A stretch of 64,000 nt of DNA from sequence record CP071152.1; one strand, written 5' to 3'. The notes beneath the pieces were generated by a model that saw only the letters and a list, made by a program, of their open reading frames with translations, made no database searches and was not told the origin of the DNA. The DNA comes from a plasmid. Position numbers and translations under genes: made by a program. Within the stretch, counting starts at the first letter, position 1; each line of letters starts with the position of its first letter. Below, in pieces: positions 1,961 through 20,682 of the stretch.

Positions 1961-1971
1961 GGAAGGACTAG

Positions 1972-4900
1972 ATGAAGATGAATAAAACAAAAATTGCCGT
2001 AGTGGTCAGTGCGGTCCTCGCACAACCAGCCTTCGCTGCTTCGATGACTGTGACAGGCGAGATCAACACCACCACCCCGACCGTGCAGGTGACGCCCAAA
2101 GGGACACTCTACGAGGGGGTCAAGGAGTCTGAGATCAAGCTCTCCTCGAACAACGAGGGCTGCCGCGTGGTCTACAAAGAGTCCGCGCTGGAAACCCTGC
2201 AACCGGGGGTATTGGGCTGCTACCTGGTGATCGACCCCGCTGATTTGCCGGTAGGGATCGAGTTCGACCCAGGCCAAGCCAGGCTGATTGGCACCACTGC
2301 CCAAAGCGGGCAAAAGGCAGTGCCCTATAAGCTCTTCTACAAATCCGGTAGTGCTGGCACCCCGGAGGAAGTTGGCTCTGGCGTGCTGCCGTTCCTGATC
2401 ACCCCGACCCTGCCGCCGGTCATCACCAACATCTTCGGTCGCTTTGACGAGCCGGTGTGGGATCTGGGCAAAGAGCCCTCCGTTCATCGCCGCTCGACCT
2501 CTGGCCAGCTCAAGTTCATGGTGGAGCCGCGCCCGTTTGACCAGCGGATCGTGATCAGCGACTTCTCGAACTGCGTGGTGAAGGAGGGGGAAGACAACTG
2601 CGTGGCGGTGAACAATTCCATGCAGAACATTCTGGGTGAGAGTGAGACGGGCAACAAGCCGATGCTGGTGTCCGCCAACTCCACCAACAACTACTTTGCG
2701 CCAGTGAACGATCAGGTTGCTCTGTCCTGGGACTTTAGGCCGCCGCTGGTGGGCGCGAACGTGCAGGGTAATACCGAATCGCCGCTCCAAACCATCGAGA
2801 CCACCGAAGGGGTGCAAGATGTGCCGTATTCGACCATCGCGGTCATCGTCAACTCGCCCCACAATGACCAGACCAAGAGCTGGTGGCACCCAGCCACCCT
2901 CAAGATGGTGCTGACGCCCGACCCAGAATCGCCGCGCAAGATCTATCTGTCCTACAAGAGTCGGCAACTGCTGAGTGTCGCGGGCACCACCCACGACAAC
3001 ACCACCGTGGCGGCCACGCCAGTAGGCAAATACATCGTTACCGGCCCGCAGCAGTTCCGGTACAACTTCGACATGAACACCATCAAGGATGGTGACTTCC
3101 TGGTGAAGATGGAGGTAACCGACCAGTACGGCAACACCAGCACCTCGGACGCCAGGCCCATCCGTCTGGACCGCTATGGCCCGCAAGTCGGCCTGTATGG
3201 GCCCGACCTGTCTGCTGTGGCCGATGGCGAAGTGGTGTTCTTCCCCGAACGCCTGACGGTCGCCTCCTACAACGGGTATACCGGCGGCGTGGTCGAGACG
3301 AAGGCCACCCTGGGCGGCGTTGAGTTGCCGTTGTCCCCCACGGACACTGAGGGTGTGTTCACCGTTGGCAAAACCGACCTCTCTGCCCTGACCTCGGGTG
3401 AATCCTACCCGCTGATCGTGACTGCCAAGGACAAGGCCGATCGGGTCACCACCAAGACCTACCAGGTCCGCTATGCCGCGACCGCGCTTAGCCTCTCACC
3501 GACTCCGGCCAACCCTGTACAGTTTGTGCAGCGGGTGTCCGTGAAGGTCGACAACACCGGCTACAACTGCCCCATTAACTACACCCAGGAGCAGGCCGCA
3601 GAGATGGCGGCGACCTACAACAAGATTGCCTGCTATGCCGAGTGGGATCTGCCACCGGGCATGGAAGCGACCGTGAGCGTTCTGGGTAACGTTGTGCTCG
3701 AAGGCTTCGTGGACGACACCGTGGGCCGTATCGGCTACACGCTCCACGCGGTAAGCCCCGAAGGGTATGTTATGGAGGTCACCAAGGGCTCCGTGGATCT
3801 GAAACCCACGCCTGCCACCGAACCTGTCATCTCCTTCCAGGGACGGCGCAAGCAGGGCGATGATGGCCTGATGATCGACATTAATGGCGGGGTGGCCGGT
3901 AGTGCAATCGTCAACTCGTCGCCGGGCGATCTGGATCTGACCGTGAACATTCCGGGTGTGGGTGAGACGACCAACTCCATCCGTATGCGCCCGCGTCCGA
4001 CTGGCGGGGACTCCAAGACCTCCGCAATCATCAAGGTGCCGAAGGGCGACATCTGGACCGTCTACCCGGTCGAGATCAAGGCCAAGTATTCTCGTACCAA
4101 TGAGCTGTCCGCTACCAAGGAAGGCAAGGTTTATATCGTGCCGTCCAAGAACTTGAAGATAAACATGAGCGGGATGGATCGGGAGTCGGTGGATAACGAA
4201 ACCTCCACGATCTCCTCGTCCATCGGGGAGTTCGACAGCAAGACCAAGCAGATCAACTACCGCCAGAACGAGCACGGCGAGTGGAACATGCGCTTGATGC
4301 AGGTCGTCACCAGCTACAAGGACGGCAATCAGTCCAAGACCTTTGTCCCGCTCACCGACATTAAGAAGACCGATGCCGAAGGCAAGGTGGATCTGGTGTT
4401 CGACCCGAGCAAGGCAGAAGGCCGGTCCATCACCTACGTGACCGAGGGTGAGGTTATTTCGCCCTTTGCCCAGTTCAAGCTCAAGATTGTCTCTGCCAAA
4501 CGCCACCTGAACCTCATCAAGGGGGTAGGGGTGGATGGTACGCCCAACGTGACCGAAATCGTTGACCAGGTGCCGATGAAGGCGACCATCAAGGTCAAGC
4601 CGGATTCCGAGCAAGATAAGGATGCGCTAGGCGAGGTGGAGTGGCAGATCCGCAGCGGCGATTCCGGTGCATGGGTGCCTGCACCCGAAGCAACGGGCCG
4701 CTTGAGCTACGTGTTCACCACCGAGGAGCCGGGCAAATGGCAGGTGCGGGCCATCCTGCACAACCGCTTGACCAACGTCACCAACCCGACCGACATCACC
4801 ACCCTGGTTGCCTATGCCAAACCTGACATCCAGCTGGTGCAGAAGAAGATCGTCCTCAAGGGTCAACCAATCCCGCTGGAAGTGACCGGCAGCCATGGCG

Positions 4901-6177
4901 CTGAGATCGATGATGCGCTCAACGTGCAATGGTCCACCGATGGCAAGCACTGGGAAGATGGTGATCGGGAAACGGAAATGATGGTCGCACCCGACAGCAA
5001 CTATCTCTATGCCCGTGCTGAGTTCGCCAACAGTCAATCGGAGGCGGAAGCCAGCAGTTGGGTGACCACCAAGATCATGCCGAAGGTGCTGACACCGGCG
5101 CAAGTGCGGGCCAGCGTGACCGGTCCCGATAAGGTCGAGATCAACAAGCCGTTCACCCTGACAGGCTCGTACAAGAACGATTACCAGCTGGTCGAAGGCG
5201 TCAAGTATCAGGAAGAGTGGGTGCTGCCGGATGGTACCGTTCGCAGCGGGCACGATGTTGTCTACACGCCGACCGAAGATGGCAAGACCCTGCCGTTCAC
5301 CTACCGTGTCTGGCTCGACGGCTACAAGGAGACCACCGTCAAGGAAGTCGTGAAGGAGGTCGATACCTGGGCCTACTACTTCCCGACCTTCTACAGCGGC
5401 CAGCGCCAGTATTTCAAACTGGCCCCGACCACTATCGAGGTGCGCAACACCACTAAACTCCCGTCGTTCCCGGGCGTGGTGTACGACATCAAGGTTACGC
5501 ACGGGGAGGGTGTGACCGATGTGAGCTTTGACAAGGAGAAGGGCCGCTATGTCGGTACCATCAACGAGCCAGGCATTCACAGCGTCTTCATTACCCTGAG
5601 CGATAACCGGGGCAACTCAGAGACCCAAGAGCATCTGTTTGCCGTCGATGAGTCCGAACCCATGCAGGCGAAGATCACCCCGAGCTACAGCAACAAGTTC
5701 ATGCGGGCCCCGCTGTCGGTGAACATGAGCAGTAGCATCGAGCTGGATCACCCCTCTGACAACCTCAAGGAGTTCAGCTGGGTGCTCGATGGCGTGCTGG
5801 TCAAGGACACAATGCGCCGTCAGCTGTTCGCCAACCTGCCCGAAGGTGACCACACCATCGAGTTCAAGGCGCTCAGTGACTTCGGCCAGCGTGCGCTGGT
5901 GAGCCACGACTTCACCGTGCTCAAGAACAAGCCAGCCGAGTGTGACTTGCAGCAGAGCGACACGACCACTTCATGGCGCGTGAAGATGTCCTGCGTGGAC
6001 ACCGATGGCCGTATCGTGGCCTATCGCTGGAAGATCGACGGCGAGACCATCGGCAACACCAGCTATGCAATCTCGCTGACCAAGGCGTTGAACCCTGGCT
6101 CGCACGAGATTGAGGCGGTGGCTATCGACGACTCCGGTGACGAAACCAAAGATTCGACCACGCTTACCGGGCAGTGA
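1972..6177 (+). CDS. Very large (1401 aa) secreted Ig-like/PKD-like repeat protein, putative adhesin
   Basis: N-terminal signal peptide MKMNKTKIAVVVSAVLAQPAFAAS. A GGAAGG RBS lies upstream. The composition is long and repetitive, rich in Thr/Val/Gly/Asp, and the C-terminal region is PKD-like ('YRWKIDGETIGNTSY...HEIEAVAIDDSGDE'). Confidence 0.55.
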   Translation: MKMNKTKIAVVVSAVLAQPAFAASMTVTGEINTTTPTVQVTPKGTLYEGVKESEIKLSSNNEGCRVVYKESALETLQPGVLGCYLVIDPADLPVGIEFDPGQARLIGTTAQSGQKAVPYKLFYKSGSAGTPEEVGSGVLPFLITPTLPPVITNIFGRFDEPVWDLGKEPSVHRRSTSGQLKFMVEPRPFDQRIVISDFSNCVVKEGEDNCVAVNNSMQNILGESETGNKPMLVSANSTNNYFAPVNDQVALSWDFRPPLVGANVQGNTESPLQTIETTEGVQDVPYSTIAVIVNSPHNDQTKSWWHPATLKMVLTPDPESPRKIYLSYKSRQLLSVAGTTHDNTTVAATPVGKYIVTGPQQFRYNFDMNTIKDGDFLVKMEVTDQYGNTSTSDARPIRLDRYGPQVGLYGPDLSAVADGEVVFFPERLTVASYNGYTGGVVETKATLGGVELPLSPTDTEGVFTVGKTDLSALTSGESYPLIVTAKDKADRVTTKTYQVRYAATALSLSPTPANPVQFVQRVSVKVDNTGYNCPINYTQEQAAEMAATYNKIACYAEWDLPPGMEATVSVLGNVVLEGFVDDTVGRIGYTLHAVSPEGYVMEVTKGSVDLKPTPATEPVISFQGRRKQGDDGLMIDINGGVAGSAIVNSSPGDLDLTVNIPGVGETTNSIRMRPRPTGGDSKTSAIIKVPKGDIWTVYPVEIKAKYSRTNELSATKEGKVYIVPSKNLKINMSGMDRESVDNETSTISSSIGEFDSKTKQINYRQNEHGEWNMRLMQVVTSYKDGNQSKTFVPLTDIKKTDAEGKVDLVFDPSKAEGRSITYVTEGEVISPFAQFKLKIVSAKRHLNLIKGVGVDGTPNVTEIVDQVPMKATIKVKPDSEQDKDALGEVEWQIRSGDSGAWVPAPEATGRLSYVFTTEEPGKWQVRAILHNRLTNVTNPTDITTLVAYAKPDIQLVQKKIVLKGQPIPLEVTGSHGAEIDDALNVQWSTDGKHWEDGDRETEMMVAPDSNYLYARAEFANSQSEAEASSWVTTKIMPKVLTPAQVRASVTGPDKVEINKPFTLTGSYKNDYQLVEGVKYQEEWVLPDGTVRSGHDVVYTPTEDGKTLPFTYRVWLDGYKETTVKEVVKEVDTWAYYFPTFYSGQRQYFKLAPTTIEVRNTTKLPSFPGVVYDIKVTHGEGVTDVSFDKEKGRYVGTINEPGIHSVFITLSDNRGNSETQEHLFAVDESEPMQAKITPSYSNKFMRAPLSVNMSSSIELDHPSDNLKEFSWVLDGVLVKDTMRRQLFANLPEGDHTIEFKALSDFGQRALVSHDFTVLKNKPAECDLQQSDTTTSWRVKMSCVDTDGRIVAYRWKIDGETIGNTSYAISLTKALNPGSHEIEAVAIDDSGDETKDSTTLTGQ

Positions 6178-7472: not shown

Positions 7473-8151
7473 ATGTACTACCACCCCAAACCCGCCGCCA
7501 GTCATGCCGCTTCCCTTCGCCCTGGGCAACTTCGCCATGTGATCCGGGTCGCCTCGATCACTGGTCGCCAGCCCGTCCGTGATGTGATGTTGCTCTGGCT
7601 CACCCATTCAACCGGTGTGCGCGTCACCGAGCTGGCCAGCATCGAGATCCGCGACCTGCTGCACCCATCCGGCCAGATGCGCGAGGAGGTCTATCTGCGG
7701 GCCTCTATCACGAAGCACAGCAGGCCCCGCACCATCTCCCAAGACCATCGCAGCCATTGAGGCGTGGCTCGCTTACCGCTGCGCCCGTGGTTGGGGCCTC
7801 TCATCCGATCCTGAGTACCGAGGCTTTCGCCCTGATGAGCGCCTGGTGCTGACCCACAAGGGGCGAGCCTTCGAGCTGGCCCGCAAAGTTCGCGAGCTCA
7901 ACACCGGTCCCGTTGAGTACCGGTGCTGTGATGCGCTCCAGCAACTGATGAGCAGGCTATATCGGCAGGCGGGGATAAAGGGGGGATCCAGCCACTCAGG
8001 CCGCCGCACCCTGGCGGCCAAGGTGCTGGCCACGACCGGCAAGGTCGAGCTGGTGCAGCTGCTGCTCGGCCATGCCGAGGCGGATCATGTGTGGCCGTAT
8101 CTGGACGTGAGGAATGAGGAGATAAGGAGGGCGTTTGATCTGGCTCTGTGA
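7473..8151 (+). pseudogene. Tyrosine recombinase/phage integrase, C-terminal catalytic domain only, with an internal frameshift
   Basis: Two overlapping ORFs (7473..7760 and 7615..8151) in different frames together give box I (GVRVTELASIEIRDL), HSGRRT, LLGHAE and the catalytic Tyr (WPYLD). The N-terminal domain is absent and the frame is broken near 7735-7760. Confidence 0.7.
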
Positions 8152-10676: not shown

Positions 10677-11228
10677 ATGACTCCACAACAACAAGCCAGC
10701 GCATGGCTTCTCAATTGCGCGATTTTGGATACGGAAACTACTGGGCTATATGACGACGCCGAGATCGTCGAGATCAGCATCATCGACGAAAATGGTGGTG
10801 TCCTGCTGGATACCCTCGTCAAGCCCCTCAAGCCGATTCCGGCAGAGGCAACCGCCATCCACGGCATCACCAATGAAATGGTGGCCACGGCCCCGACATG
10901 GGCCGCCATCCATGAGCAGGTGGCCAAGATTGTCGCCAGCAAACCGCTGGTGATTTATAACGCCGATTACGATCTGCGTTTGATGGCTCAAACCGCCGTG
11001 CAATACGGGCTCACTCCGATAGGGACAGAGGCAGGCTGCGCCATGCTGACCTATGCCGAGCACTATGACGAATGGAACGAGTACAAAGGTACGTACCGCT
11101 GGCAGAAGCTGACCAACGCCGCTGCCCAGCAAGGAGTGGTTATCGACGGCAAGGCGCACCGCGCCCTTGCTGATGTGAAGATGACGCTCGGGGTGATCAA
11201 AGCTATGGCTGGACTTAGTTCTAACTGA
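10677..11228 (+). CDS. DEDDh-family 3'-5' exonuclease (DnaQ/epsilon-like)
   Basis: Exo I 'ILDTETTGL', Exo II 'LVIYNADYDLRLM' and Exo III 'KAHRALADV' motifs are all present. Preceded by AAGGGAAAAACGACGATG. Confidence 0.8.
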   Translation: MTPQQQASAWLLNCAILDTETTGLYDDAEIVEISIIDENGGVLLDTLVKPLKPIPAEATAIHGITNEMVATAPTWAAIHEQVAKIVASKPLVIYNADYDLRLMAQTAVQYGLTPIGTEAGCAMLTYAEHYDEWNEYKGTYRWQKLTNAAAQQGVVIDGKAHRALADVKMTLGVIKAMAGLSSN

Positions 11229-11604: not shown

Positions 11605-11812
11605 GAGTCTGAGCGACATTTTTGTAGATCTCGTAAGTGTATAATTAGGGAAGGTGCGAATAAGTCATATGGCACGAGAGCATTTACTGGTAACCCATTG
11701 ATATTAAATGACTAAAATTTTCATTTTTTGTTCTTGGGATACTTGTTCGCACTGTCCCTATCAGTTGTGGGCTGGTGGGTGAGCCACCAGTGATGGTCTG
11801 CTACATGGTTGT

Positions 11813-12068
11813 CCACCCGCTACATTGGCGAGCCGTATCGACAAGATCTTTGGCGAAGGTGTGTTCATGCTGGCGCATTCGTGCTTGGGTCAGCATATCG
11901 AGGACGTAGGTGAAGTTGGTCTCTGACAATTGCACCTCGCTGTCGACTCGGACCATTATGCGAGATGCACTCCCGTCCTAGCAGCTGATCGCTTTCCAAG
12001 ATCCCGTCTTGATCCGTCATGAAGAGCCGCTTTGAACTCTGGATCGAGAAATACTGCTTCATCATCTG
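11813..12068 (-). pseudogene. Degraded ORF broken over three frames
   Basis: The minus-strand translation gives 'MADDEAVFLDPEFKAALHDGSR', then 'DQDGILESDQLLGRECISH', then 'IMVRVDSEVQLSETNFTYVLDMLTQARM' in successive frames. Confidence 0.3.
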
Positions 12069-12158
12069 CCATCACCTCACCCGTTACCTGGAGACCCAAT
12101 CATATCTGGATGCGCAGCGCGATACAGAGTGATCGCGCTGCTACCAGGTACCTTTTCC

Positions 12159-13217
12159 TCACAGGAACAGCTTGAGGTTATCGTCTAGCTCAACCCCAAG
12201 CTGGGTTGCCAGCATGGCGGCGGTGAGGGCCACCGCGTCCCCACTTTTAGTGATCTTGCTCAACGTAATGCACCGCCCATCCCACAAACCACTGGCCCGG
12301 GCCGTCAGCCCCTCGCGTTCCAAGCTGACAAGGTCGTGCAGCTGGGCGGGGTTGCGCAGCAGGGGGAAGACCCGACAGATGGCGAGAAAGCCGACGTTGT
12401 GGGGCAGTATCGACAACTGGCGCAGCATGGGCAGCCCGCCTGCCTCTTTGCTGAGCTCACGATAGACCTGCCAGAGTTCCCGTGTGTAGGGTGCCCATTT
12501 GTCCCAGCTCGATTCGAGCCGGTCCAGAGACAGGCTGGCCAGCTGTTTCAGGCTGACGCCCAGCAGGCCCGCCATCGCTTCCTTAAAAATTCCGGGGGTC
12601 ACCAGCTTGTCCGAAGTCTTGGAGACCGTTGCCTTCTCGCTCTCCATCACCTCAGCCGGGCAATTCATGGTGATGAAACCGCCGAGTGGGTTGGAGTGGT
12701 CGTAGATGGCGTTCAAGGACGGAGAGACCTTTGCCGCCGTGCCGTTTATGGAGGCAAACAACTGCTGCTTGTGGATCAGCTCCTCGGTACCCACAACATG
12801 TAGTGGTATGGTCTCATTCCATTCGGGATCCTGTTCGGCTCGCAGAATGCAGCTCTTGACGCGCTTTTGACCATCTACGAGGTAGATGTCGGTCAACTCC
12901 ACCTCCACCAGGTTTGGCACCCCGGCCACCGGCGTTTCACTGATCACCTTGGCCGTCGCGATAGGTGAGCCGAAGGCTCGCACGGAGCGGTCCAGGTAGC
13001 CGTTGATCCTGCGAACGTGACCCATATCAATGACCCGTTGCGCCCGCAACATGGGGTCGTTGGCATCGAGCGCGTCAGCGAAATAGGCCGAGAACATCGC
13101 ACCCAACCGCTGAGTCGGGATTGAACCGGTGTAGGTCTCAAACTGGCCGAAGGTTCCCTTAAAGGCAAAGATGCGTTGGGTCATGTGATGTCTCGTCGTG
13201 TGGTTTGATAAATACAC
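12159..13217 (-). CDS. DGQHR-domain (DndB-like) protein
   Basis: N-terminal 'FKGTFGQFETYTGSIP' and 'YLVDGQKRVKS' (DGQ-K/H-R) match the architecture of the DGQHR domain found in DndB/DpdB. The start could instead be the internal ATG at 13184. Confidence 0.6.
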   Translation of the reverse strand: MYLSNHTTRHHMTQRIFAFKGTFGQFETYTGSIPTQRLGAMFSAYFADALDANDPMLRAQRVIDMGHVRRINGYLDRSVRAFGSPIATAKVISETPVAGVPNLVEVELTDIYLVDGQKRVKSCILRAEQDPEWNETIPLHVVGTEELIHKQQLFASINGTAAKVSPSLNAIYDHSNPLGGFITMNCPAEVMESEKATVSKTSDKLVTPGIFKEAMAGLLGVSLKQLASLSLDRLESSWDKWAPYTRELWQVYRELSKEAGGLPMLRQLSILPHNVGFLAICRVFPLLRNPAQLHDLVSLEREGLTARASGLWDGRCITLSKITKSGDAVALTAAMLATQLGVELDDNLKLFL

Positions 13218-13276
13218 TGGACTATTCCAAACGGATAGTCAATAATGATTTACGAAATCACGATGAGGAGCTGGTA

Positions 13277-13510
13277 ATGAGCGAGTCACTGGATGTTGTC
13301 GGGCTGGAGTGCGAAGAGGCAATGTTCTACATCAAGGATGTGTTGCGCAAAGGCCACGGCCTGCCCCTGGCAGTGCGCTCAGCCAGCGCCCCGTTTCACC
13401 AACTGCTGAGTCTGTGGGCAAGCTCGACAGACCATCTGCTACACCCTGCGATCAAGCCGGTGCAGGGGGAGGTCTGGGAATTGACGGTCAGTAAGGTGAT
13501 GCCATGTTGA
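13277..13510 (+). CDS. Small hypothetical protein overlapping the start of the PP-loop gene
   Basis: AGGAG lies 6 nt before the ATG at 13277. The ORF ends at 13510, overlapping the 13504 start. The longer 13205 ORF start is less likely. Confidence 0.35.
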   Translation: MSESLDVVGLECEEAMFYIKDVLRKGHGLPLAVRSASAPFHQLLSLWASSTDHLLHPAIKPVQGEVWELTVSKVMPC

Positions 13511-14622
13511 GCCATGTGGTGGGGTTGGCCGAGGTGGAAGCCTCCCTGCTCGGCGGCGAGCTGGCGGTGGCCAACATCGACCCGCGTCGAGAAGCCATTT
13601 TCGCTGCGGCCCGCGAACTGTACGAGAGCCTGATCGAAGGGCGCATCTTGCCGCTCATTCAGGCCCACAAAATACGCCTCGCCTGCTCGATGGGGAAGGA
13701 TTCATTGACTCTTTTGAATCTGTATGTAGAGGCTCACCGCCGCGCCAAGGAGCGGGACATTCCCGTTGCCGGGCCCCTTATTGTGACTCATGCGGACACA
13801 AAAATTGAGAGTCCAGTGATGAGCATGTTTGCAAAGCGGCAGCTGCGCCTGCTGGCGGCGTATCTGGATCAGCATGGGATTGCCCATCGGATCCTGACCG
13901 CAGAGCCGCAGCCTCGTTACTCATGGCCGGTACTCTACGTCGGTGGACTCAAGTTGATGACGGTCGGGGCGAGTGTCACCAGTGATTGCACGGTCGAGTT
14001 GAAGATTAACCCACTGCGAGCGTTGGAGCGCAAGTTGGAGAGGGAGTTCCCCGGGCTGGTGCTGGCCACCGGGGTGAGGCTGGACGAGAGTATCGCGCGT
14101 TCGCAGTCCATCAAGGAGATCGGGCTAGAGAGAGGCGAAGTGGTCGTTGGCGCGGATGGTTCCCGCAATGTGGCCCCTATCGTCGACTTGTCGACCCCTG
14201 AGGTGTGGCTCCTGTTGCGCTGTATGGGTGTAGGAGCGAAGCGCGAGTACGGCGATCACCTGCCGCACTGGGATTCATCTACAGCCTATCTCCGCCGCCT
14301 CTATAGCGACCAGGATGAGAGCAACTGTCCTATCTCTGGGTCGTCGGTGCTCCCCACGCGGGGTGGCTGTGGTGGGAGCAGCCTTCGCTCAGGCTGTGCG
14401 CTCTGCACAGTCGTCAACTCCGATAAACAGGCCGAGTCGTTGACCGACTTGCCCCAGTATCCCCAGCTGCGCAATCTGTTGGCCGTGAGGAACTGGTTAT
14501 CGAACAACTTCGCCAACATGCAGTACCGGCGCTTTCTGGCCCGCAAACCCTCCGCCGATGGGTACCTCAAACTCCAAGGTGACTGCTCCCCGCCGCAAGC
14601 GGCGAGGCTTCCCACTTCTTAG
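13504..14622 (+). CDS. PP-loop ATP pyrophosphatase of the PAPS-reductase/DndC-like family with a C-terminal Cys cluster
   Basis: The P-loop 'ACSMGKDSLTLL' is an SGGxDS variant. The C-terminal 'GGCGGSSLRSGCALC' is a Cys cluster. AAGGTGA lies 6 nt upstream of the ATG. The gene is divergent from the DGQHR gene. Confidence 0.65.
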   Translation: MLSHVVGLAEVEASLLGGELAVANIDPRREAIFAAARELYESLIEGRILPLIQAHKIRLACSMGKDSLTLLNLYVEAHRRAKERDIPVAGPLIVTHADTKIESPVMSMFAKRQLRLLAAYLDQHGIAHRILTAEPQPRYSWPVLYVGGLKLMTVGASVTSDCTVELKINPLRALERKLEREFPGLVLATGVRLDESIARSQSIKEIGLERGEVVVGADGSRNVAPIVDLSTPEVWLLLRCMGVGAKREYGDHLPHWDSSTAYLRRLYSDQDESNCPISGSSVLPTRGGCGGSSLRSGCALCTVVNSDKQAESLTDLPQYPQLRNLLAVRNWLSNNFANMQYRRFLARKPSADGYLKLQGDCSPPQAARLPTS

Positions 14623-14645
14623 GCCGCTACTGCCGAATTGGCAGA

Positions 14646-15810
14646 TTAACGCTGGCCTCCATGGGTAGAAACGACGTGTCCCGCCGCCTTTAATTCCAAT
14701 ATGCCTTGTTGCTGGATATTCATGGCCGCGTTAATGTCGCGGTCATGCCCTGCCCCACGCTGGACATACCCACTGCCGCTGATGCAACGGCATGTCCGGC
14801 ATCTTGTGGCCGCAATCGCTACACAGTTTCGAGCTGGCAAACCACTGATCAAGTTTGATTAGGTGGCGACCCGCCGCTTGTGCCTTGTACTCCAGCTTCA
14901 TGATGAAACCATGCCAACCAGCATCGCCAATGGCGCGGGCCAGTTTGTGATTTTTCATCATGTTCGCTGATTTCAATGTCTCCACGATGACCGCTTGGTT
15001 TTCGTCAACCATCGTGTGAGAGAGTTTGTGCTGAAAATCGGCGCGGGCATTGGCTACCCGTTCGTGCAGGGCGGCCAGTTGCCGTCTTGCCTTGCCACGG
15101 TTGGCGCTGCCCTTTTTCTTGCGAGACAGTGCCTTTTGCTTGCGTCGTAGATTGCGACTGGCGTTGATAAGGTGGCGTGGATTGGCAATCTTTTTGCCGC
15201 TCGACTCAATGAGGTAGTGGGACAGCCCCATATCACAGCCAGTCACGTCCGTGATGAAGGTGGGCTTGGCGGGAGCCTCGCAGCCATCCTCGCAAAGGAT
15301 GGAAGCATAGTATTTCCCTGTCGGGCCACGGCTGACTGTGATGCTGGATACCACGCCGATAATATCTCGATGAATGACCGCCCTGATGGGCGTCATCTTC
15401 GGCAACTGGATAGCCGCTGTGAGCACCTTTCCGTTGGGGTGATAGCTGGATTGCCTGCCCCGTTTGCTCTTGAAGGTAGGCATTCGTGCCTTGAGCTTGG
15501 GATTGAAGAAGTTGGCGAATGCCTTGTCGAGATTAATCACCGCTTGCTGCAAGGCGAGTGAATCGTACTCCTTTAGCCAGCCGTATTTGCGCGATTTTTC
15601 GCCACTGCGAGCATGGGTTTCAGGTCGCGTTTCGGTTTCAGTGAAATCCCGTGACGCTTGAACATGTGTCGTTGAATATGAAGGGCCTTGTTGTACGCGA
15701 ACCGCACCGCGCCGAACTGGGCATTCAAGAATGCCGCTTGTTCGTCGGTCGGATAAATGCGTACTTTCGTTGCTCTTCTCAAAGTCACCGCTCGCTGCTA
15801 GGATACCCAT
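14646..15810 (-). pseudogene. tnpB: IS200/IS605-family tnpB (OrfB, RuvC-like / zinc finger) with at least two frameshifts
   Basis: About 85% identical at protein level to the intact copy at 17931..19103. It is split over ORFs 15573..15788, 14743..15810 and 14646..14852. The C-terminus carries 'CSDCGH...DRDINAAMNI'. Confidence 0.85.
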
Positions 15811-15815
15811 ACAGT

Positions 15816-16265
15816 ATGACTTTTAACGGAGTATTGCAAGTGAGTGTGCATCATGATGATTTGACTAGGTATCTGCGGAGGCGTCACTCCGTCAGCAAGC
15901 TAGTTGTGCATTTAATCTTCACCACGAAGTACCGCCGCAAACTGCTTGATGGCACCATGATCGAGCAGATGCGCGGCGCATTTTTATCTGCGGCAGAGAA
16001 GTTGGAGATCGACATTCTGGAGATGGATGGCGAAGCCGATCACGTTCATCTGCTCGTAGCCTATCCACCGAAGTTGGCCGTCAGTGTGTTGGTCAATAAT
16101 TTGAAGTCGATCAGTAGCCGCCAGATCCGCATATTGAATACGCACCTACGAAAGCAAAGTAATAGCGGGCTCCTGTGGTCGCGCTCTTACTTTGCTTGCA
16201 GTGCTGGCGGGGCCACTATCGAAACGCTCAAGGCGTATGTGGCCTCGCAGAACACACCAGATTAG
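15816..16265 (+). CDS. tnpA: IS200-family HUH (Y1) transposase TnpA
   Basis: The sequence 'VVHLIFTTKYRRKLL...GEADHVHLLVAYPPK...RSYFACSAGGATIETLKAYV' matches the IS200 TnpA fold. It is divergent from tnpB. Confidence 0.85.
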   Translation: MTFNGVLQVSVHHDDLTRYLRRRHSVSKLVVHLIFTTKYRRKLLDGTMIEQMRGAFLSAAEKLEIDILEMDGEADHVHLLVAYPPKLAVSVLVNNLKSISSRQIRILNTHLRKQSNSGLLWSRSYFACSAGGATIETLKAYVASQNTPD

Positions 16266-16307
16266 CTCCCCTTATATCCCCGCCCTAACGGCGAGGGTTT
16301 ACGGGGC
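16266..16307. mobile_element. IS200/IS605 left-end (LE) with subterminal hairpin CGCC-CTAA-GGCG
   Basis: GCTCCCCTTATATCCCCGCCCTAACGGCGAGGGTTTACGGGG. Its reverse complement recurs at 17822 with a 4-nt loop difference. Confidence 0.7.
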
Positions 16308-16320
16308 AGTTGCTAACACA

Positions 16321-17817
16321 ATGAATGAGGTCTGGATGGTGAAGGTGCTCCGATGGCTGTTGCAATGCGACCGTGACGAGCAGCTGCGGGCCGAACAGTT
16401 CCATCAAGACCTGCTTACCGGGGAGTGGAGGGTTCACCCTGGGGTGCAAGCCATCATCCAGGATCACAAGCTGACGCCCGCACAGCGCATCGAGTGGCTG
16501 CACAGCTATCTCGAAGACATGGCGATCCCGACGTTCGAGCTAGTCACGCCTACCCAACTGTTGCTGATCGACGCCTTCTGGTCCAGAGACGGTTATAGGT
16601 TGGCCGCCTTCCAAGCATTATCCATCTGGCGTGAGGTTCATCACCTGGGCATCACCGTGCCCTACCCCGAGCTGGTGGGCGAGCGGGTGAAAGAGGAGAT
16701 CCCCGCACCGGTCTACTACCCGATCGGCAATGACCCGGCGCTGTTGTCCCTTGGAGACATCGAGCAGAGCGCGGTATTTGACCGCTACCTGGCCGATTTA
16801 GCGTCGTTGAGCTTCGGCAGCTGCGGTGGCGCGACCAAAATTGTGCGCAAGCAGGTGAGCAGCGAGCCGGTTCGCTACGGCGAGGTGGCCGGTGCCACAC
16901 TGTCCGGCTGGTTTGGCGACACGGAATCGGTCCCCCTCGTGGTCGAGGCCGAAGAAGGGGAGTGCGGCTACACGGTGGACGCGGAGGCCGCCGAGTGGAT
17001 ATGCGGCCCGATGATCTCGGACTATTTGGGGCAGATTGGCGAGCTGGACAAGCGGAGCAATGTGGCACTGCGCCGGTTGATCAGCGAAGGGGTGCTGCGG
17101 TTGTCGGTGCAGGCCCAGCGCAACACGGCAAGGTTGATGGCTCGTGCAGACATGTATGAGTCTGCCGGTATGAGCAGGCTCGAAGATGGGGATCCCGTGT
17201 TCTTGGCTGACTGCATCAGTCAGGCCGAATACGAGCGCCAGGTGGCCAGTTCCACGAACTCCACGAAGGACAACGAGCCGGCACCGGGCACCGAGGTCAT
17301 GGTCAGTGTCGAGCAGCAGTGGGCCGATCTGAACCGGGCTGTCGATTCGGTGCTGGCCTTGCACGCTCGCCTCGAACAGAAGCGGTTCGCGGTCACCCTG
17401 ACGCTGAATCAAATGGGCCAGAGCTTCCGCTTTGATGGGGTCAGGTACCAGGAGCTTCAACGGGTCATCAGCAACCAGCTCCAGGCCATCCAACTCCTCT
17501 TCGCCAAGCCCGAGTCCACCCTTGCCCTGTTGCCCTCTACGGCGAGCCTGTGTCGTGCCTTTGGCCGGGAGCGCACCCAACGCCTGCGGTTGCTCCAGCA
17601 ACGCGCCGGTGCTGCGATGCAGGGCCATCGTGAAGCAGCTCTTCGGGCGCTGGATGAGGCAGTCTGTCTCGCGCAGTCTGAAATGGGTCAGGGACCGACA
17701 CCATTCTTCATGGTGGGGGGTGGGATGGGCTTTATCGTGGAGGGGGCCAAGGCACGAGATTATCTGGATCTGATGCACCGCCTGCACAGCTTCAAGCGGC
17801 TGGCGAGAGCCAGTTGA
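16321..17817 (+). CDS. Hypothetical 499-aa protein packed between two inverted IS605-family left ends (cargo/passenger)
   Basis: The ATG at 16321 lies 14 bp after the copy-A LE. The stop at 17817 lies 4 bp before the copy-B LE. No recognisable motif. Confidence 0.55.
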   Translation: MNEVWMVKVLRWLLQCDRDEQLRAEQFHQDLLTGEWRVHPGVQAIIQDHKLTPAQRIEWLHSYLEDMAIPTFELVTPTQLLLIDAFWSRDGYRLAAFQALSIWREVHHLGITVPYPELVGERVKEEIPAPVYYPIGNDPALLSLGDIEQSAVFDRYLADLASLSFGSCGGATKIVRKQVSSEPVRYGEVAGATLSGWFGDTESVPLVVEAEEGECGYTVDAEAAEWICGPMISDYLGQIGELDKRSNVALRRLISEGVLRLSVQAQRNTARLMARADMYESAGMSRLEDGDPVFLADCISQAEYERQVASSTNSTKDNEPAPGTEVMVSVEQQWADLNRAVDSVLALHARLEQKRFAVTLTLNQMGQSFRFDGVRYQELQRVISNQLQAIQLLFAKPESTLALLPSTASLCRAFGRERTQRLRLLQQRAGAAMQGHREAALRALDEAVCLAQSEMGQGPTPFFMVGGGMGFIVEGAKARDYLDLMHRLHSFKRLARAS

Positions 17818-17821
17818 GTTA

Positions 17822-19145
17822 GCAGATGCCCCGTAAACCCTCGCCGGGCGGGGATATAAGGGGAGCGAATCAAGTCTTGTCTTGAAAAGTTAGTTGATAC
17901 TGTATATCTTTACAGTATCGCGTTTGAGTTTTGACTGTGAAAAGAGCCACTAAGGTACGCATCTACCCCACCGACGAACAAGCGGCATTCCTCAATGCCC
18001 AGTTCGGCGCAGTGCGGTTCGCGTACAACAAGGCCCTTCAACTCAAACGCCACATGTATCAACGTCATGGCGTATCGCTTTCGCCAAAGCGTGACCTGAA
18101 ACCCCTGCTTGCAGTAGCGAAAAGGTCGCGCAAATACGGCTGGCTGAAAGAGTACGATTCGCAAGCCTTGCAGCAGGCGGTGATCAATCTGGATAAGGCA
18201 TTCGCCAACTTCTTCAATCCCAAGCTCAAGGCTCAAATGCCCACCTTCAAGAGCAAGCGGGGCAGACAATCAAGCTATCACCCCAACGGGAAAGTGCTGG
18301 CTGAGGCCATCCAATTGCCGAAGATGACGCCTATCAAGGCAGTCATTCATCGTGACATTGTTGGCGTAGTGTCCAGCATTACGGTCAGTCGCGGCCCGAC
18401 AGGCAAATATTATGCTTCCATCCTCTGCGAGGATGGCTGCGAGGCACCGACCAAGCCTACGTTCATCACGAATGTGACCGGCTGCGATATGGGACTATCC
18501 CACTACCTCATCCAGTCCAGCGGCAAGAAGATTGCCAACCCGCGCCACCTGCTCAATGCCAGCCGGAACTTGCGGCGCAAACAAAAGGCGTTGGCTCGCA
18601 AGAAATGGGGTAGTGCCAACCGCAGTAAAGCAAGGCGGCAACTGGCAGCCCTGCACGAGCGGGTAGCCAATGCCCGCGCCGATTTTCAGCACAAACTCTC
18701 TCGCACCTTGATTGGCGATAGCCAAGCGATCATCGTGGAGACCCTAAAATCAGCCAACATGATGAAAAACCATAAGCTGGCCCGCGCCATCGGTGATGCA
18801 GGCTGGCATGGTTTCATCATGAAGCTGGAATACAAAGCCACAGCAGCAGGAGTGCATCTGGTCAAAGTTGACCAGTGGTTCGCCAGCTCTAAAACATGCC
18901 ATTGTTGCGGCCACAAGCTGACTGAGTTGAAACTCAGTGAACGGAGTTGGCAGTGTCCTTCCTGTCTGGTTATCAATGACCGCGACCTCAATGCCGCGCT
19001 CAACATCAGACAGAAAGGCATTCTGGAATTAAAAGCGGCGGGACTCGTCGTTTCAGCCCATGGAGGCCAGCGTAAATCCGTCACAGCGACGGTAGCGGCC
19101 TAAGAAGTGGGAAGCCTCGCCGTTAGGGCGGGGAGCAGTCACCTT
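17822..19145 (+). mobile_element. tnpB-only IS200/IS605-family element (LE, tnpB, RE)
   Basis: LE 17822-17930 is the inverted copy of 16266-16307. The RE hairpin CCTCGCCGTTAGGGCGGGGA lies at about 19117-19137. Confidence 0.75.
17931..19103 (+). CDS. tnpB: IS605-family TnpB (RNA-guided endonuclease ancestor), apparently intact
   Basis: 390 aa with 'CHCCGHKLTELKLSERSWQCPSCLVINDRDLNAALNI'. The RuvC-like motifs are intact. Confidence 0.9.
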   Translation: MTVKRATKVRIYPTDEQAAFLNAQFGAVRFAYNKALQLKRHMYQRHGVSLSPKRDLKPLLAVAKRSRKYGWLKEYDSQALQQAVINLDKAFANFFNPKLKAQMPTFKSKRGRQSSYHPNGKVLAEAIQLPKMTPIKAVIHRDIVGVVSSITVSRGPTGKYYASILCEDGCEAPTKPTFITNVTGCDMGLSHYLIQSSGKKIANPRHLLNASRNLRRKQKALARKKWGSANRSKARRQLAALHERVANARADFQHKLSRTLIGDSQAIIVETLKSANMMKNHKLARAIGDAGWHGFIMKLEYKATAAGVHLVKVDQWFASSKTCHCCGHKLTELKLSERSWQCPSCLVINDRDLNAALNIRQKGILELKAAGLVVSAHGGQRKSVTATVAA

Positions 19146-19205
19146 TTGTGGCTCTATTGAAAATTGAGTATCGTGGCGTTTTGCCTTGAACAAGGAGTGT
19201 TCTTG

Positions 19206-20381
19206 ATGTCGTTGTCTCCCATGGATCTTGCTCAGCATTACCTTGTTGATGATATACCCGCTGCGATCTCGATTGGCGATCCGCTCCATAGTCTGCTTGA
19301 GGCCATTTTCAGGAACGAGCCGCTGTCTGCCAGCAGCTATGGCATTCTCGCCAGCCACGGCCTCAGCGCCTTGAGAGGCTTTACCGAAGGCAATATGACT
19401 CTCACTGAGTTCAGACGCATGTCAGGTGAGGAGCGGGCGCAGCGCAGTTTAGCGACAGGCTTTTATAAGGGGCGGAAGATTGTGCATTCCTACCGACCAA
19501 CAACCTCGATGCCTCCAGCGCCCCAGCGAGAGTCGGAGCAGGTGAAGAGGATGATGCTGTTGCATGAACAACAGCGGAAGCTCCCAGCGCATAACGTCGC
19601 AGCTAAGAAGGGTATTCAGGGGGCGCTGAAAGCCATTGAAGCGCGACTGAACGTTGAGCGGGTCAAGCGTGTGAACGACCCCGAGCAGATCGCTAGGGTG
19701 AAGAACCAGGCGCTCAGGGAGAAATACGCCGTCCTTGCCTTTGTCGAACCTGACCACTTCAAACCACTCATGGCCATCCTGGACAAACTGGATGCTGGCA
19801 CCAGGTTACTTGAGGCCGAGACGATCTGGCTCAAGAGTACGGGGCGCAAGTATGAGACCAAGGCGGTCGTTCACGCCCACAACCGGCTGGAAGCCGACCA
19901 TTGGCTTGCCGAATACCGTAACAGCAAAAACCCTTGGAGTGCGGTCAATGCCAGCGGCCATTTACGCAAATGCGCTGCATCTGGTGAGGCGATCACTCTG
20001 CTCGCTGCCATCCCGGCCAAGCGCCAGGAACAGCCCAAACTCAAGTCCGCCATTCTGACTACCCATGGTGGCGCATTGCGTGACCAAGGCAATAGGACTG
20101 ATGCCATGGCCATGGGAGAGGAAGCACACCGCCTTCAACCCAAGAATTTCAGGCCATGCACACTCCTTGGCGCGGTCTGTATGGAGCTGGGCATGATCGT
20201 TGAAGGCCATGAGTGGTACGGCAAGGCAGAAGTCAGAGGCGCTAGCCGTGACAGCATAGAGGCCGATGTCCGGTCACTGCTGACCCGCATGACTGCCGAG
20301 AGGCGCGATTCGGTCGTTGCGGAGCTGCTGCGGATTGATCCAGCGCAATATCGGTGGCTTCGCAAACTGAGAACGGCTTAA
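19206..20381 (+). CDS. Hypothetical 391-aa protein
   Basis: AAGGAG lies 9 nt upstream of the ATG at 19206. No recognisable domain. Confidence 0.45.
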   Translation: MSLSPMDLAQHYLVDDIPAAISIGDPLHSLLEAIFRNEPLSASSYGILASHGLSALRGFTEGNMTLTEFRRMSGEERAQRSLATGFYKGRKIVHSYRPTTSMPPAPQRESEQVKRMMLLHEQQRKLPAHNVAAKKGIQGALKAIEARLNVERVKRVNDPEQIARVKNQALREKYAVLAFVEPDHFKPLMAILDKLDAGTRLLEAETIWLKSTGRKYETKAVVHAHNRLEADHWLAEYRNSKNPWSAVNASGHLRKCAASGEAITLLAAIPAKRQEQPKLKSAILTTHGGALRDQGNRTDAMAMGEEAHRLQPKNFRPCTLLGAVCMELGMIVEGHEWYGKAEVRGASRDSIEADVRSLLTRMTAERRDSVVAELLRIDPAQYRWLRKLRTA

Positions 20382-20682
20382 CGTTCATCAGGGACAGCGA
20401 GCCCGGTTGTCCTCGAAGGACATCGCAATAATATGCCATCTTGCTTGTGTCACCCTGCGGGGGTCTTCACTGTCACCTCCTGCTGCAACCCCGACCATCT
20501 GAGGGTTTATTTCCCACTGCATCATTCTCTTTCGCTTCTTTTCGCTCTCTTCGTCTCTCTCTCACTGGGCCAGTTCACGCCCCCGAGGCTCAGCTGATGG
20601 GGTAGGGGAGGCGCACCGGTACCGAGGCGCTACCCAAGGACACCGCAACAGGCTATCATATTCGCAAATTGATTCATCAAAT

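Follow-up and report, generated by a model that had tools for sequence, protein, structure and literature searches.

A divergent DndB-like, TusA-like and DndC-like gene trio of Aeromonadaceae plasmids: a candidate orphan sulfur-modification cassette

Introduction

What does a DndC-like enzyme do when its gene stands opposite that of a DGQHR-domain protein on a plasmid, with no other part of a known DNA modification system beside it? The question is raised by a 64,000-nucleotide stretch of plasmid DNA (sequence record CP071152.1; hereafter the window), in which a preliminary description made from the letters alone had recognised such a pair and proposed a DNA-modification or defence module.

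DndB is the repressor of dnd clusters, and DpdB is the NTPase/DNA-loading partner of DpdA. To our knowledge, DNA phosphorothioation (PT) is the work of four gene families (dnd, ssp, tdp and type 4 brx), all of which have been studied as chromosomal defence; we know of no established PT system other than Tdp that manages without a separate NTPase, and of none that uses DndB for this purpose.

There are precedents for economy in such systems, as TdpC, BrxP (BREX type 4) and SspD are DndC-type enzymes that install phosphorothioate with very few partners. By itself tdpC is reported to be enough for PT (PMC12914056), brxP together with brxC is enough in BREX type 4 (PMC12914056), and BrxP is an enzyme fused to a DNA-binding module (PMC12914056, PMC12839542). 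Within the Dnd system, DndA can be replaced by host IscS, and TusA, a sulfur carrier for tRNA thiolation and Moco, is dispensable for canonical phosphorothioation (PMC3519819).

Results

The enzyme gene is interrupted by an insertion sequence

The features of the locus are listed in Table 1. The PAPS-reductase/DndC-family PP-loop enzyme that had been proposed to start at position 13504 was borne out by profile searches, since the open reading frame 13504..14622(+) matched PF01507 (24 bits), TIGR03183 (4.8e-19), PRK06850 (1.6e-24) and the PADLOC DndC model (3e-23). However, this reading frame, which had been taken for a whole protein, comprises only the first 358 codons of a much larger gene. 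In a tblastn search 13504..14583 was matched by amino acids 1-359 of an 853-aa Aeromonas homologue, and in a blastn search the sequence up to 14578 showed 99.2% identity with the unbroken counterpart in A. caviae Aero21 p1 (locus L005). The final 13 codons of the 372-aa reading frame are insertion sequence, and the remaining 501 codons of the gene are found at 16312..17817. Alignment to the 853-859-aa homologues, along with the uninterrupted Aero21 p1 gene, rules out the 372-aa frame as a complete short enzyme. We conclude that the large gene has about 859 codons and is split by the precise insertion of a 1733-bp IS200/IS605 element.

Table 1. Features of the cassette and its immediate surroundings in the window.
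Feature	Position	Strand	Remarks
Remnant of variable fourth gene	11804..12065	-	Codons 1-38 (12065..11952) fused to codons 394-444 (11956..11804)
DndB-like DGQHR-domain (ParB/Srx superfamily) gene	12159..13184	-	341 aa, apparently intact; motif DGQKR
Divergent intergenic region, 92 bp	13185..13276		GAGGAG ribosome-binding site before ATG 13277
Small conserved gene, candidate TusA-like persulfide carrier	13277..13510	+	77 aa; 'ECEEAM' Cys; stop overlaps large-gene start
Large DndC-like PP-loop/[4Fe-4S] sulfurtransferase gene, 5' part	13504..14578	+	Codons 1-358; PP-loop SMGKDS, Cys162, Cys275, C289-X8-C298-X2-C301
IS200/IS605-family element (ISAeme8-like), 1733 bp	14579..16311		Interrupts large gene
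TnpB, split over two frames	14646..15810	-	OrfB_IS605/TnpB models, 260-302 bits
TnpA Y1 transposase	within 15651..16265	+	Pfam Y1_Tnp, 4e-35, 121 bits
Large gene, 3' part	16312..17817	+	Codons 359-859 and stop; family-specific C-terminal extension, mostly helical, without recognisable domain

The element shows the hallmarks of its family, namely a Y1 TnpA with a TnpB and precise insertion without target duplication, the aligned junctions reading ...CTCCAAG / IS / CTAACAC... It is 99.5-99.6% identical to annotated ISAeme8 copies and is missing at exactly this point in loci L005 and L004. The pair had been placed beside the decayed 3' terminus of an IS605-family element, but it is the element, with both its transposase-type genes, that lies within the large gene. 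The cassette in the window, a recently inactivated copy, is dead and cannot work because its enzyme gene is split. Near-identical copies of the cassette have been inactivated repeatedly, from which it may be that the cassette is dispensable or costly.

The large enzyme has a DndC-type core and a long extension

In the large protein, a DndC-type PP-loop ATP pyrophosphatase whose cysteines are of the [4Fe-4S] type occupies the first ~450 residues, and a helical extension the last ~400. Matches of the large protein to TIGR03183 and PRK06850 ranged from 1e-17 to 1e-24. The SMGKDS form of the P-loop, already remarked on in the preliminary description, is the window's version of an S-[F/M]-G-K-D-S motif that characterises the whole large-protein family. 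A cysteine cluster had also been recorded, at the C-terminus; the cluster is real and corresponds to the Fe-S motif of DndC, but it lies mid-protein, because the 372-aa reading frame is only the front part of the gene. It can be seen that S62, G64, K65, D66, S67, C162, K167, C275, C289, R295, G297, C298, C301 and D307 are invariant across the large-protein family, related proteins of IncC and IncHI2 plasmids and bona fide DndC. All DndC core residues are invariant in the large-protein family, as are five cysteines that include CX8CX2C. Together the SxGxDS motif, the conserved cluster-type cysteines and the PP-loop Rossmann-like fold place the protein among the PP-loop/[4Fe-4S] sulfurtransferases, Fe-S binding being a prediction.

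An AF2 model of the large protein (pLDDT 75.5) had as its closest solved folds the [4Fe-4S] PP-loop thiolases TtuA and NcsA (Foldseek, E 1e-4 to 6e-4), a ranking that cannot discriminate because a sequence search of the PDB returned no structure of DndC, SspD or TdpC. The protein is not a QueC, TilS, ThiI or CysH housekeeping enzyme, as DndC models were its top matches and all genome and plasmid records of it are plasmid-borne. Models of TtcA, TtuA, ThiI and MnmA gave no match to the window protein at E <= 0.01. Within the C-terminal extension no DNA-binding fold could be recognised, and DUF4007 was absent from the Pfam matches of the large protein.

The DndB-like and TusA-like genes

A DGQHR-domain protein had been assigned to 12159..13217 on the minus strand, and this was upheld by the Pfam model PF14072 (1.4e-28, 100.4 bits against a cutoff of 29.1, covering 3-337 of 338), by the DGQHR domain model TIGR03187 (83.1 bits, cutoff 58.85) and by the PADLOC DndB model (2.8e-21). 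The DndB equivalog TIGR03233, however, was not reached (87.1 bits against 328). Homologues, which have 341 aa and are 63-98% identical, favour the ATG at 13184 over the start of the longer reading frame. The literal DGQHR motif is absent; DGQKR stands in its place and, together with some 80 further columns, does not vary among 13 sequences whose identity falls as low as 39%. The motif amounts to a substitution inside an otherwise matching DGQHR domain.

The small reading frame that overlaps the start of the PP-loop gene had been noted previously, and it proved to be real and conserved, since it precedes the large gene wherever the flank is visible (hmmsearch 1e-17 to 1e-37). TusA is of similar size (~77-82 aa) and was the top match in both Pfam and the PDB, albeit a weak one. 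The Pfam model (PF01206) gave E values of 0.003-0.006 and 16.8-17.9 bits, under the gathering cutoff of 28.6; E. coli TusA/YhhP headed the PDB sequence matches at E 0.06, with the cysteine aligned to TusA Cys19, and hhalign against TusA gave E 3.4e-4 with a probability of 38%. The N-terminal pattern 'LD..G..C-E/P-x-x-hM..hR' aligns with the persulfide region around Cys19, although TusA has CPxP where the small protein has CEEA. All five family members with this segment in the called reading frame have the cysteine, and the other two calls begin downstream of the segment. On these alignments we regard the small protein as a candidate TusA-like protein.

The region between the divergent genes may serve the DndB-like protein as an operator. 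The sigma-70-like site that it contains (13218..13246, +) is weak, and scans for promoters and terminators found sites no more numerous than in shuffled controls. Only one inverted repeat was found, a weak one (78% complementary) that reaches from the 5' coding end of the DndB-like gene into the intergenic region.

The trio is conserved on unrelated flanks

A survey of gene neighbourhoods showed that the DGQHR and PP-loop genes do co-occur as a unit, with the small gene as a third member. The DndB-like gene diverges from a two-gene operon made up of the small and large genes. Of 13 distinct loci whose upstream flank is visible, 12 carry the trio in this layout (L001, L004, L005, L006, L010, L012, L013, L015, L020, L022, L027 and the window), the sole exception (L019) being truncated at a transposon end. 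Large-protein identity across the trio loci is 37-100%, with the most distant at 37-47%, and gene order and orientation persist at identities as low as ~40%, in loci whose flanks are otherwise unrelated. With the window/P0033 lineage as reference, identities at L001, L010, L012, L013 and L015 are 63, 47, 43, 45 and 43% for the large protein, 67, 44, 41, 40 and 39% for the DndB-like protein and 48, 36, 27, 34 and 31% for the small protein. Judged from these sequence comparisons, the three genes diverge in parallel, and purifying selection on all three is indicated because each retains many invariant residues.

The family is rare: it turned up in 2 genomes among 185,579 species genomes, on Aeromonadaceae plasmids in both cases, and on about 6 plasmids among 72,556. 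Every genome or plasmid record with the large enzyme is a plasmid, and the metagenomic loci have plasmid-type neighbours. The DndB-linked clade is so far confined to plasmids of Aeromonadaceae and related metagenomic contigs. A scan of viral contigs found no relatives, and PHROGs gave generic phage PAPS-reductase matches only.

The lack of dnd, ssp or dpd partners and of a cysteine desulfurase, as claimed earlier, held up: Pfam, NCBIfam and PADLOC detected no DndD/E, Ssp, Dpd or desulfurase gene near the window cassette. On the window PADLOC matched only DndB and DndC models, apart from a weaker match between the PP-loop fragment and one labelled type II methyltransferase. The trio loci with a visible flank are free of DndD/E, Ssp, Dpd and BREX partners, and DndD and DndE are absent from the gene lists of L001, L005, L006, L010, L012, L013, L015 and L017.

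The gene that abuts the DndB-like gene is variable. In A. caviae Aero21 p1 it encodes a 444-aa protein, whereas the window copy has an internal 1066-bp deletion, lacking L005 positions 12201-13266 (blastn), and is matched by the 444-aa protein at 100% identity over two end pieces only (tblastn). Across loci it is of at least five unrelated kinds, including the 444-aa protein, an HTH-containing protein of 359-368 aa, a PLD-family nuclease and a DUF6575 protein. A four-gene cassette was rejected for this reason, and the fourth gene is outside the cassette core. The surroundings had been read as an integrase-bounded island of the kind typical of defence hotspots; we found no support for this, as 7615..8151 is a 178-aa reading frame with a sub-threshold Pfam integrase match and the locus lies downstream of traN in an accessory/backbone region of a conjugative megaplasmid.

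Comparison with known systems

DndC (DndABCDE, TIGR03183) shares with the large enzyme the PP-loop ATP pyrophosphatase core and the five cysteines with their flanking motifs; it is also the top profile match, and a DGQHR/DndB-type gene adjoins in both cases. However, DndC has ~450-550 aa and the P-loop SGGKDS, whereas the large enzyme has ~860 aa, S-[F/M]-GKDS and a unique C-terminal extension of ~400 aa. The Dnd system has DndD and DndE, both of which the cassette lacks; conversely, the cassette has a dedicated TusA-like gene that Dnd does not require, and its DndB-like gene is divergent rather than first in the operon. The DndC equivalog cutoff of 290.4 bits was reached neither by the window fragment (68.6) nor by the intact 859-aa protein (62.1). 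Since the TIGR03183 and TIGR03233 scores are far under the equivalog cutoffs, the large enzyme and the DndB-like protein are not orthologues of DndC and DndB.

The partners used by Tdp, BREX and Ssp enzymes are replaced here by the DGQHR and TusA-like proteins. No BrxC, PglZ, BrxL, SspB or SspC gene accompanies the cassette, none of its neighbours appears to be TdpA or TdpB, and neither the large protein nor its neighbours contain SspB/DUF4007, SspC/BrxC ATPase (DUF6079), PglZ or BrxL. DndB and DpdB have the DGQHR domain in common with the cassette protein and are likewise genetically coupled to a nucleic acid modification enzyme; in the cassette, where the motif is DGQKR, that enzyme is unlike both the DndCDE complex and the DpdA transglycosylase. 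The window neighbourhood and related loci contain no TGT-like or QueC-like protein of a Dpd system.

Discussion

On balance we favour the view that the cassette is a compact orphan module of conjugative plasmids for sulfur modification of nucleic acid, probably of the DNA backbone. The host cysteine desulfurase IscS would load a persulfide onto the conserved cysteine of the TusA-like protein, which would pass the sulfur to the large enzyme; this in turn would adenylate its nucleic acid substrate with ATP and exchange oxygen for sulfur. We infer the substrate, whether DNA backbone, DNA base, RNA or tRNA, from homology only, and the likeliest is a backbone phosphate that would become a phosphorothioate, as with DndC, SspD, BrxP and TdpC. 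The C-terminal extension may take over the substrate binding done elsewhere by DndD/DndE or SspB/SspC, and the DndB-like protein may be either a repressor of the divergent operon, like DndB, or an NTPase/DNA-loading partner, like DpdB for DpdA. The likeliest role would be orphan protection of the plasmid (anti-restriction or self-marking) rather than restriction-type defence, because no nuclease partner is conserved and, on IncC, IncHI2 and other plasmids, the wider enzyme superfamily has ssb, bet/exo and genes for orphan DNA methyltransferases as its neighbours. Of the original proposal, then, the conserved module stands and modification is favoured, whereas defence is less likely, no restriction or effector partner being conserved. 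A bolder form of this view, which we put forward as speculative, is that the trio constitutes by itself a fifth type of system for DNA sulfur modification, with the DGQHR protein as an obligatory NTPase/DNA loader, the TusA-like protein as sulfur feed and target selection by the C-terminal extension. Conjugative plasmids would use it to have their DNA pre-marked or shielded against recipient nucleases; the ~2400 IncC, IncHI2 and other plasmids with a related long 'PAPS reductase' would then also sulfur-modify DNA.

It is unlikely that the cassette is instead the modification half of a PT restriction system, with the variable adjacent gene or a DUF262/GmrSD_N protein as the effector that excludes phages or rival plasmids. 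Such a system would account for the variable gene always abutting the DndB-like gene and for PADLOC seeing only Dnd-type components in the DndB-like and DndC-like proteins. DUF262/GmrSD_N genes also lie a few kb away in L001, L010 and L017, and DUF262, the type of N-terminal domain found in PT-sensing SspE, has been flagged near PT genes (PMC12914056). However, the candidate effectors are not conserved across the family and the neighbours are mutually unrelated, the PLD protein of L012 begins with a signal-peptide-like sequence, and the DUF262 proteins, short at 192-200 aa, have no nuclease domain in precomputed Pfam lists. The IncC/IncHI2 relatives, moreover, are found among establishment-type genes and orphan methylases and not beside nucleases.

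Somewhat less probable again is thiolation of a nucleobase in tRNA, other RNA or DNA, with a TusA-like relay as in MnmA/TusA or TtuA/TtuB and the DndB-like protein as a regulator only. TusA is a tRNA-thiolation and Moco carrier that Dnd does not need, the DndC equivalog scores are not attained, and the best solved structural neighbours, TtuA and NcsA, are tRNA thiolases. This last point carries the caveat on the Foldseek ranking given above, and the profile matches are to DndC and not to the thiolase models searched; the five-cysteine pattern with its flanking RxGCxxCT and CTxxLK-like motifs is that of DndC, and the enzyme is genetically partnered with a DGQHR protein, which is DNA-associated. 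We think it improbable that the genes are adjacent without any joint function, the DndB-like protein being a ParB/Srx-type plasmid factor that acts alone (as on pND6-2 or pJM1), the long PAPS reductase a backbone gene that likewise acts alone (as on IncC/IncHI2), and both decaying here. Both protein types do occur alone on many plasmids (DndB-like matches were found on 216 and long PAPS-reductase matches on 2387), and several near-identical copies are broken; yet the shared order and orientation, the parallel divergence and the selection on each gene described above speak against chance adjacency.

The preliminary description had considered the module undescribed. We likewise found no account of the cassette in the literature searched, which covered comparative genomics of Dnd, BREX and polyvalent proteins as well as leading-region anti-defence; the enzyme superfamily itself is already annotated. 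The window copy is dead and the DndB-linked clade rare, which limits the weight of the finding. If the favoured reading of a sulfur-modification module is true, the cassette would offer a minimal and tractable means of studying how targets are chosen and sulfur is delivered without DndD/E, and would show whether DGQHR proteins act as catalytic partners and not as regulators alone, and whether conjugative plasmids use sulfur modification for anti-restriction or establishment.

The cassette also directs attention to a larger and clinically relevant group, the apparently unstudied long 'PAPS reductases' of IncC and IncHI2 resistance plasmids, for which the literature searched contained no functional study. 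The large enzyme is a branch of this big uncharacterised superfamily, which accounts for the 2387 plasmids mentioned above. The IncC/IncHI2 proteins (such as WP_001187969 of pSN254b and WP_000469466) are only 22-25% identical to the large enzyme, do not share its distal ~185 residues and are encoded without a DndB-like or TusA-like neighbour. They are nevertheless homologous to it over residues ~9-675 (hhalign E 2e-30 and 6e-36), have identical catalytic residues and are likewise encoded on MOBH/MPF_F conjugative plasmids, in a comparable gene-block context.

A conserved three-gene cassette

Loci related to the cassette were gathered by exact-protein look-ups and from PLSDB, GTDB species genomes and metagenomes, and all of them were then scanned with HMMs of the three proteins. 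Of the 13 distinct loci whose upstream flank can be seen, 12 (L001, L004, L005, L006, L010/L011/L017/L024, L012, L013/L014, L015, L020, L022, L027 and the window) share one layout, with the DndB-like gene on one strand and the small and large genes on the other; the sole locus without it, L019, is 5'-truncated. The three proteins have diverged in parallel. With the lineage of the window and P0033 (the intact 859-aa large protein) as reference, identities in L001, L010, L012, L013 and L015 are 63, 47, 43, 45 and 43% for the large protein, 67, 44, 41, 40 and 39% for the DndB-like protein and 48, 36, 27, 34 and 31% for the small protein, and numerous positions are invariant in each of the three. 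On the downstream side of the DndB-like gene, the adjoining gene differs between loci: it may encode the 444-aa protein, a protein of 359-368 aa that is unrelated to it and has a weak MqsA-type HTH match, a protein of 169 aa, a PLD protein with a signal peptide, or a DUF6575 protein. As this gene is not conserved, we conclude that the conserved unit consists of three genes.

No DndD, DndE, DndA, Ssp, BREX, Dpd or DndFGH components were present in any of the trio loci. A preliminary description of this DNA had proposed a minimal DGQHR plus PP-loop module of two or three genes lacking dnd, ssp or dpd partners; the neighbourhood survey settles on the three-gene form and extends the absence of partners to all trio loci examined. 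We regard the anatomy and conservation of the cassette as close to certain.

Profile matches (see table) bear out the DGQHR-domain identity of the first gene, whose start is placed at the ATG at 13184 on the basis of 341-aa homologues at 63-98% identity; 92 bp of intergenic DNA separate it from the divergent small ORF. In PLSDB, six Aeromonas plasmids encode a DndB-like protein with 44% identity or more. Longer DndB/DGQHR proteins (514-539 aa) also stand alone on pND6-2 and pJM1, with no PP-loop enzyme beside them.

The small ORF overlapping the start of the large gene is likewise a real conserved gene, since each of the related loci holds a homologue in the matching place (hmmsearch 1e-17 to 1e-37). 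An 'ECEEAM' segment is present in all five members whose called ORF extends to it. The only Pfam match is to TusA (E 0.003-0.006, below cutoff), the best sequence matches of the family profile in the PDB are to E. coli TusA/YhhP (E 0.06), in an alignment that pairs the conserved Cys with TusA Cys19, and hhalign against TusA gave E 3.4e-4 with a probability of just 38%. It is plausible from these alignments that the small protein is a TusA-like persulfide carrier.

The large gene is split by an insertion sequence

The SMGKDS and C-X8-C-X2-C motifs noted previously in the PP-loop ORF are present, and a profile check upheld its DndC/PAPS-reductase assignment, with DndC models matching better than PAPS_reduct. 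The 372-aa ORF is, however, not the whole enzyme that it had been taken for. Homologues are 853-876 aa long, and in a tblastn comparison residues 1-359 of an 853-aa Aeromonas homologue matched 13504..14583 of the window and residues 358-853 matched 16312..17805. A 541-aa ORF visibly supplies the missing C-terminal portion. The window is collinear with plasmid p1 of A. caviae Aero21 (NZ_CP068231, L005), where the gene is uninterrupted, as far as 14578 and once more from 16312 onward; the intervening 1733 bp are absent from both Aero21 p1 and the metagenomic relative L004. Insertion was exact (...CTCCAAG / insert / CTAACAC...), with no target duplication. From the homologue lengths, the split match and the precise junction, it follows that the 372-aa ORF is a truncated product ending in IS-derived codons, and the cysteine cluster described as C-terminal in fact has a mid-protein position. 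The TnpB of the insert lies in two frames, with the last RuvC motif (DRDINAAMNI) in the second; this is either a frameshifted gene or a sequencing error.

We conclude from the split that the cassette in the window is non-functional. Both halves of the gene have kept an open frame and 99-100% identity with intact copies, and the insertion is therefore recent. A second lesion has removed 1066 bp from the gene downstream of the DndB-like gene, which encodes 444 aa in Aero21 p1. The Aero21 p1 cassette (about 154061-157985 of NZ_CP068231, or to 159413 with the downstream gene) is intact, and the exact 859-aa large protein represents a cluster of 141 member sequences. Near-identical (99%) copies elsewhere have been damaged independently (see table); the truncation point in L019 resembles a Tn3-family terminal repeat, and the many frame breaks in L004 are possibly sequencing errors. 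That it has been lost repeatedly points to a cassette that, in some hosts, is costly or can be dispensed with.

Features of the window and of related loci (window coordinates unless a locus is named)
Feature	Position	Strand	Remarks
Two very large Ig-like-domain proteins	47-6177		637 and 1401 aa
DEDDh 3'-5' exonuclease	10677-11228		Also matches PADLOC CRISPR-associated DEDDh model
Repeated ~115-bp stretch	11643-11763
Fused remnant of 444-aa gene	11865..12065		66 codons, left by the deletion
DndB/DGQHR-domain ORF	12159..13217	-	PF14072 1.4e-28 over whole model; TIGR03187 83 bits (cutoff 58.85); PADLOC DndB 2.8e-21
Small TusA-like gene	13277..13510	+	77 aa
PP-loop ORF	13504..14622	+	PAPS_reduct match; better: TIGR03183 4.8e-19, PRK06850 1.6e-24, PADLOC DndC 3e-23
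ISAeme8-like insert	between 14578 and 16312		99.5-99.6% identity to annotated ISAeme8; Y1 TnpA (Pfam 4e-35) and TnpB
TnpB of insert	14646-15810		Frames 14743..15810 and 14646..14852
541-aa ORF holding C-terminal portion of large protein	16192..17817
TnpB-only IS200/IS605-type element	~17824-19138		TnpB 17931..19103, full length (NCBIfam)
Tn3-family (TnAs1-like) transposase	22102-24855		Start of mercury/macrolide-resistance region common to many plasmids
Frame breaks	L004 8350-12254		Many
5' truncation	L019 ~5968-6000		First 51 codons and all upstream gone
In-frame stop	L021 470-472
DndB-like gene only, truncated	L028 6473-7234		pK520-KPC
Long 'PAPS reductase' gene, DndC-like	L007 5818-8271		pSN254b, IncC
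Long 'PAPS reductase' gene, DndC-like	L008 5767-8151		IncHI2
Long 'PAPS reductase' gene, DndC-like	L009 5959-7758
Long 'PAPS reductase' gene, DndC-like	L029
Solo DndB/DGQHR protein	L016 5497-7116		pND6-2; adjoins dcm, rdgC, HU, SprT genes
Solo DndB/DGQHR protein	L018 5977-7521		pJM1; adjoins parA/parB

The large protein and its plasmid relatives

An alignment brought together members of the large-protein family, the proteins of IncC and IncHI2 plasmids and four sequences that carry a DndC annotation. Among the positions invariant throughout are the PP-loop S62-x-G64-K65-D66-S67, T99, E102, K167, D307 and the motif G190-x-R192-x-x-E195-S196-x-x-R199. Five cysteines are also invariant (C162, C275, C289, C298 and C301), the last three of which lie in the R-x-G-C-x-x-C-T motif. 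An AF2 model of P0033 had a mean pLDDT of 75.5, and its closest Foldseek matches were TtuA and NcsA (E 1e-4 to 6e-4), which are [4Fe-4S]-dependent PP-loop tRNA thiolases; DndC, SspD and TdpC structures were not detectable in the PDB by sequence search. When the C-terminal 501 residues served as a phmmer query on a set of 1.84 billion representatives, 35 proteins were retrieved, just three of them full-length family representatives; other proteins, of 800-1200 aa, match over no more than the first ~140 residues of the query.

The cassette is rare: 185,579 GTDB species genomes held two loci, both on Aeromonadaceae plasmids, the metagenome collection seven and the viral collection none, and five PLSDB records match the large protein over 80% or more of its length. 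When the large protein was compared with 72,556 plasmids by tblastn, 2387 (1848 of them conjugative) matched at 23-31% identity over residues ~31-496. The proteins behind these matches belong to the 'PAPS reductase family', measure 600-820 aa and come from IncC (pSN254b), IncHI2 and other plasmids; they keep every DndC core residue, and profile comparison carries the homology as far as residue ~675 (E 2e-30 and 6e-36). In the HMM scan of the collected loci, these relatives had neither a DndB-like nor a TusA-like neighbour. Their genes form part of long co-directional blocks that also contain genes for ssb, bet, exo, DUF3150, VWA and orphan DNA methyltransferases (cytosine or other), or adjoin a PRTRC/ParB module. 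Our literature search found no functional study of them. Within this large plasmid enzyme family, uncharacterised as far as we could find, the DndB-linked trio forms a small and specialised branch.

Relationship to known systems and possible function

DndC, SspD, BrxP and TdpC all introduce phosphorothioate (PT) and are enzymes of the PAPS-reductase type. The cassette is predicted from homology to be a sulfur-modification module of this Dnd/Ssp/Tdp/Brx kind, yet to be a member of none. Its DndC- and DndB-like proteins miss the equivalog cutoffs by a wide margin; it lacks the DndD/E of Dnd, the SspBC of Ssp and the BrxCZL of BREX; its motif is DGQKR rather than DGQHR; its enzyme is nearly twice as long as DndC; and, unlike Dnd, it has an added TusA-like gene. 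A full-text literature search, whose coverage leaves out many subscription papers so that a prior description is possible, found no account of it, in keeping with the earlier view that such a module was undescribed. The cassette is a real and conserved module, apparently undescribed. Its mechanism can be tested, and it connects with plasmids of clinical importance; its own importance is limited by the pseudogenised state of the window copy, the rarity of the clade and a function inferred only from homology.

DndB reportedly represses the dnd operon, and DpdB is said to be the ATPase partner of DpdA. In cited work DndB figures as a dispensable regulator and proposed ATP binder (papers including PMC12914056). 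DndA can be replaced by IscS and Dnd does not require TusA (PMC3519819), brxP with brxC suffices for PT in type 4 BREX (PMC12914056) and tdpC suffices for it on its own (PMC12914056). Given what is known of Dnd, Ssp, Brx and Tdp, the most economical model is a relay in which sulfur would pass from host IscS through the TusA-like protein to the large enzyme. The enzyme would adenylate and thiolate a nucleic-acid substrate, most likely a DNA backbone phosphate, bound by its private C-terminal extension; the DndB-like protein would serve either as regulator of the divergent operon or as an NTPase partner.

Our confidence declines along these steps: we consider sulfur transfer to nucleic acid somewhat probable, DNA phosphorothioation specifically a tentative assignment and an anti-restriction role a more tentative one. 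The cassette had been put forward as a candidate for DNA modification or defence. Homology supports the modification reading; the defence reading lost ground, because a nuclease partner is not conserved. For that reason, and because the relatives lie among orphan methylases and establishment-type genes, we think an orphan modification that protects the plasmid likelier than a restriction-type defence.

Origin of the window DNA and flanking elements

The window DNA derives from an Aeromonas conjugative megaplasmid: 11757-20467 is 99.0-99.8% identical to Aero21 p1, and the flanks have counterparts on other ~240-kb Aeromonas plasmids. The TnpB-only element immediately 3' of the large-gene stop is an insertion relative to L019 and L021, both of which lack the matching 1315 bp of Aero21 p1. 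At the left breakpoint of the Aero21 p1 homology lies the ~115-bp stretch, which shares 96-99% identity with many unrelated plasmids and with one chromosome (Aeromonas, E. coli, Klebsiella, Enterobacter and Salmonella); elsewhere it is unannotated or falls within 'PAS/methyl-accepting chemotaxis' annotations, and it could be the end of a transposon or a small mobile repeat.
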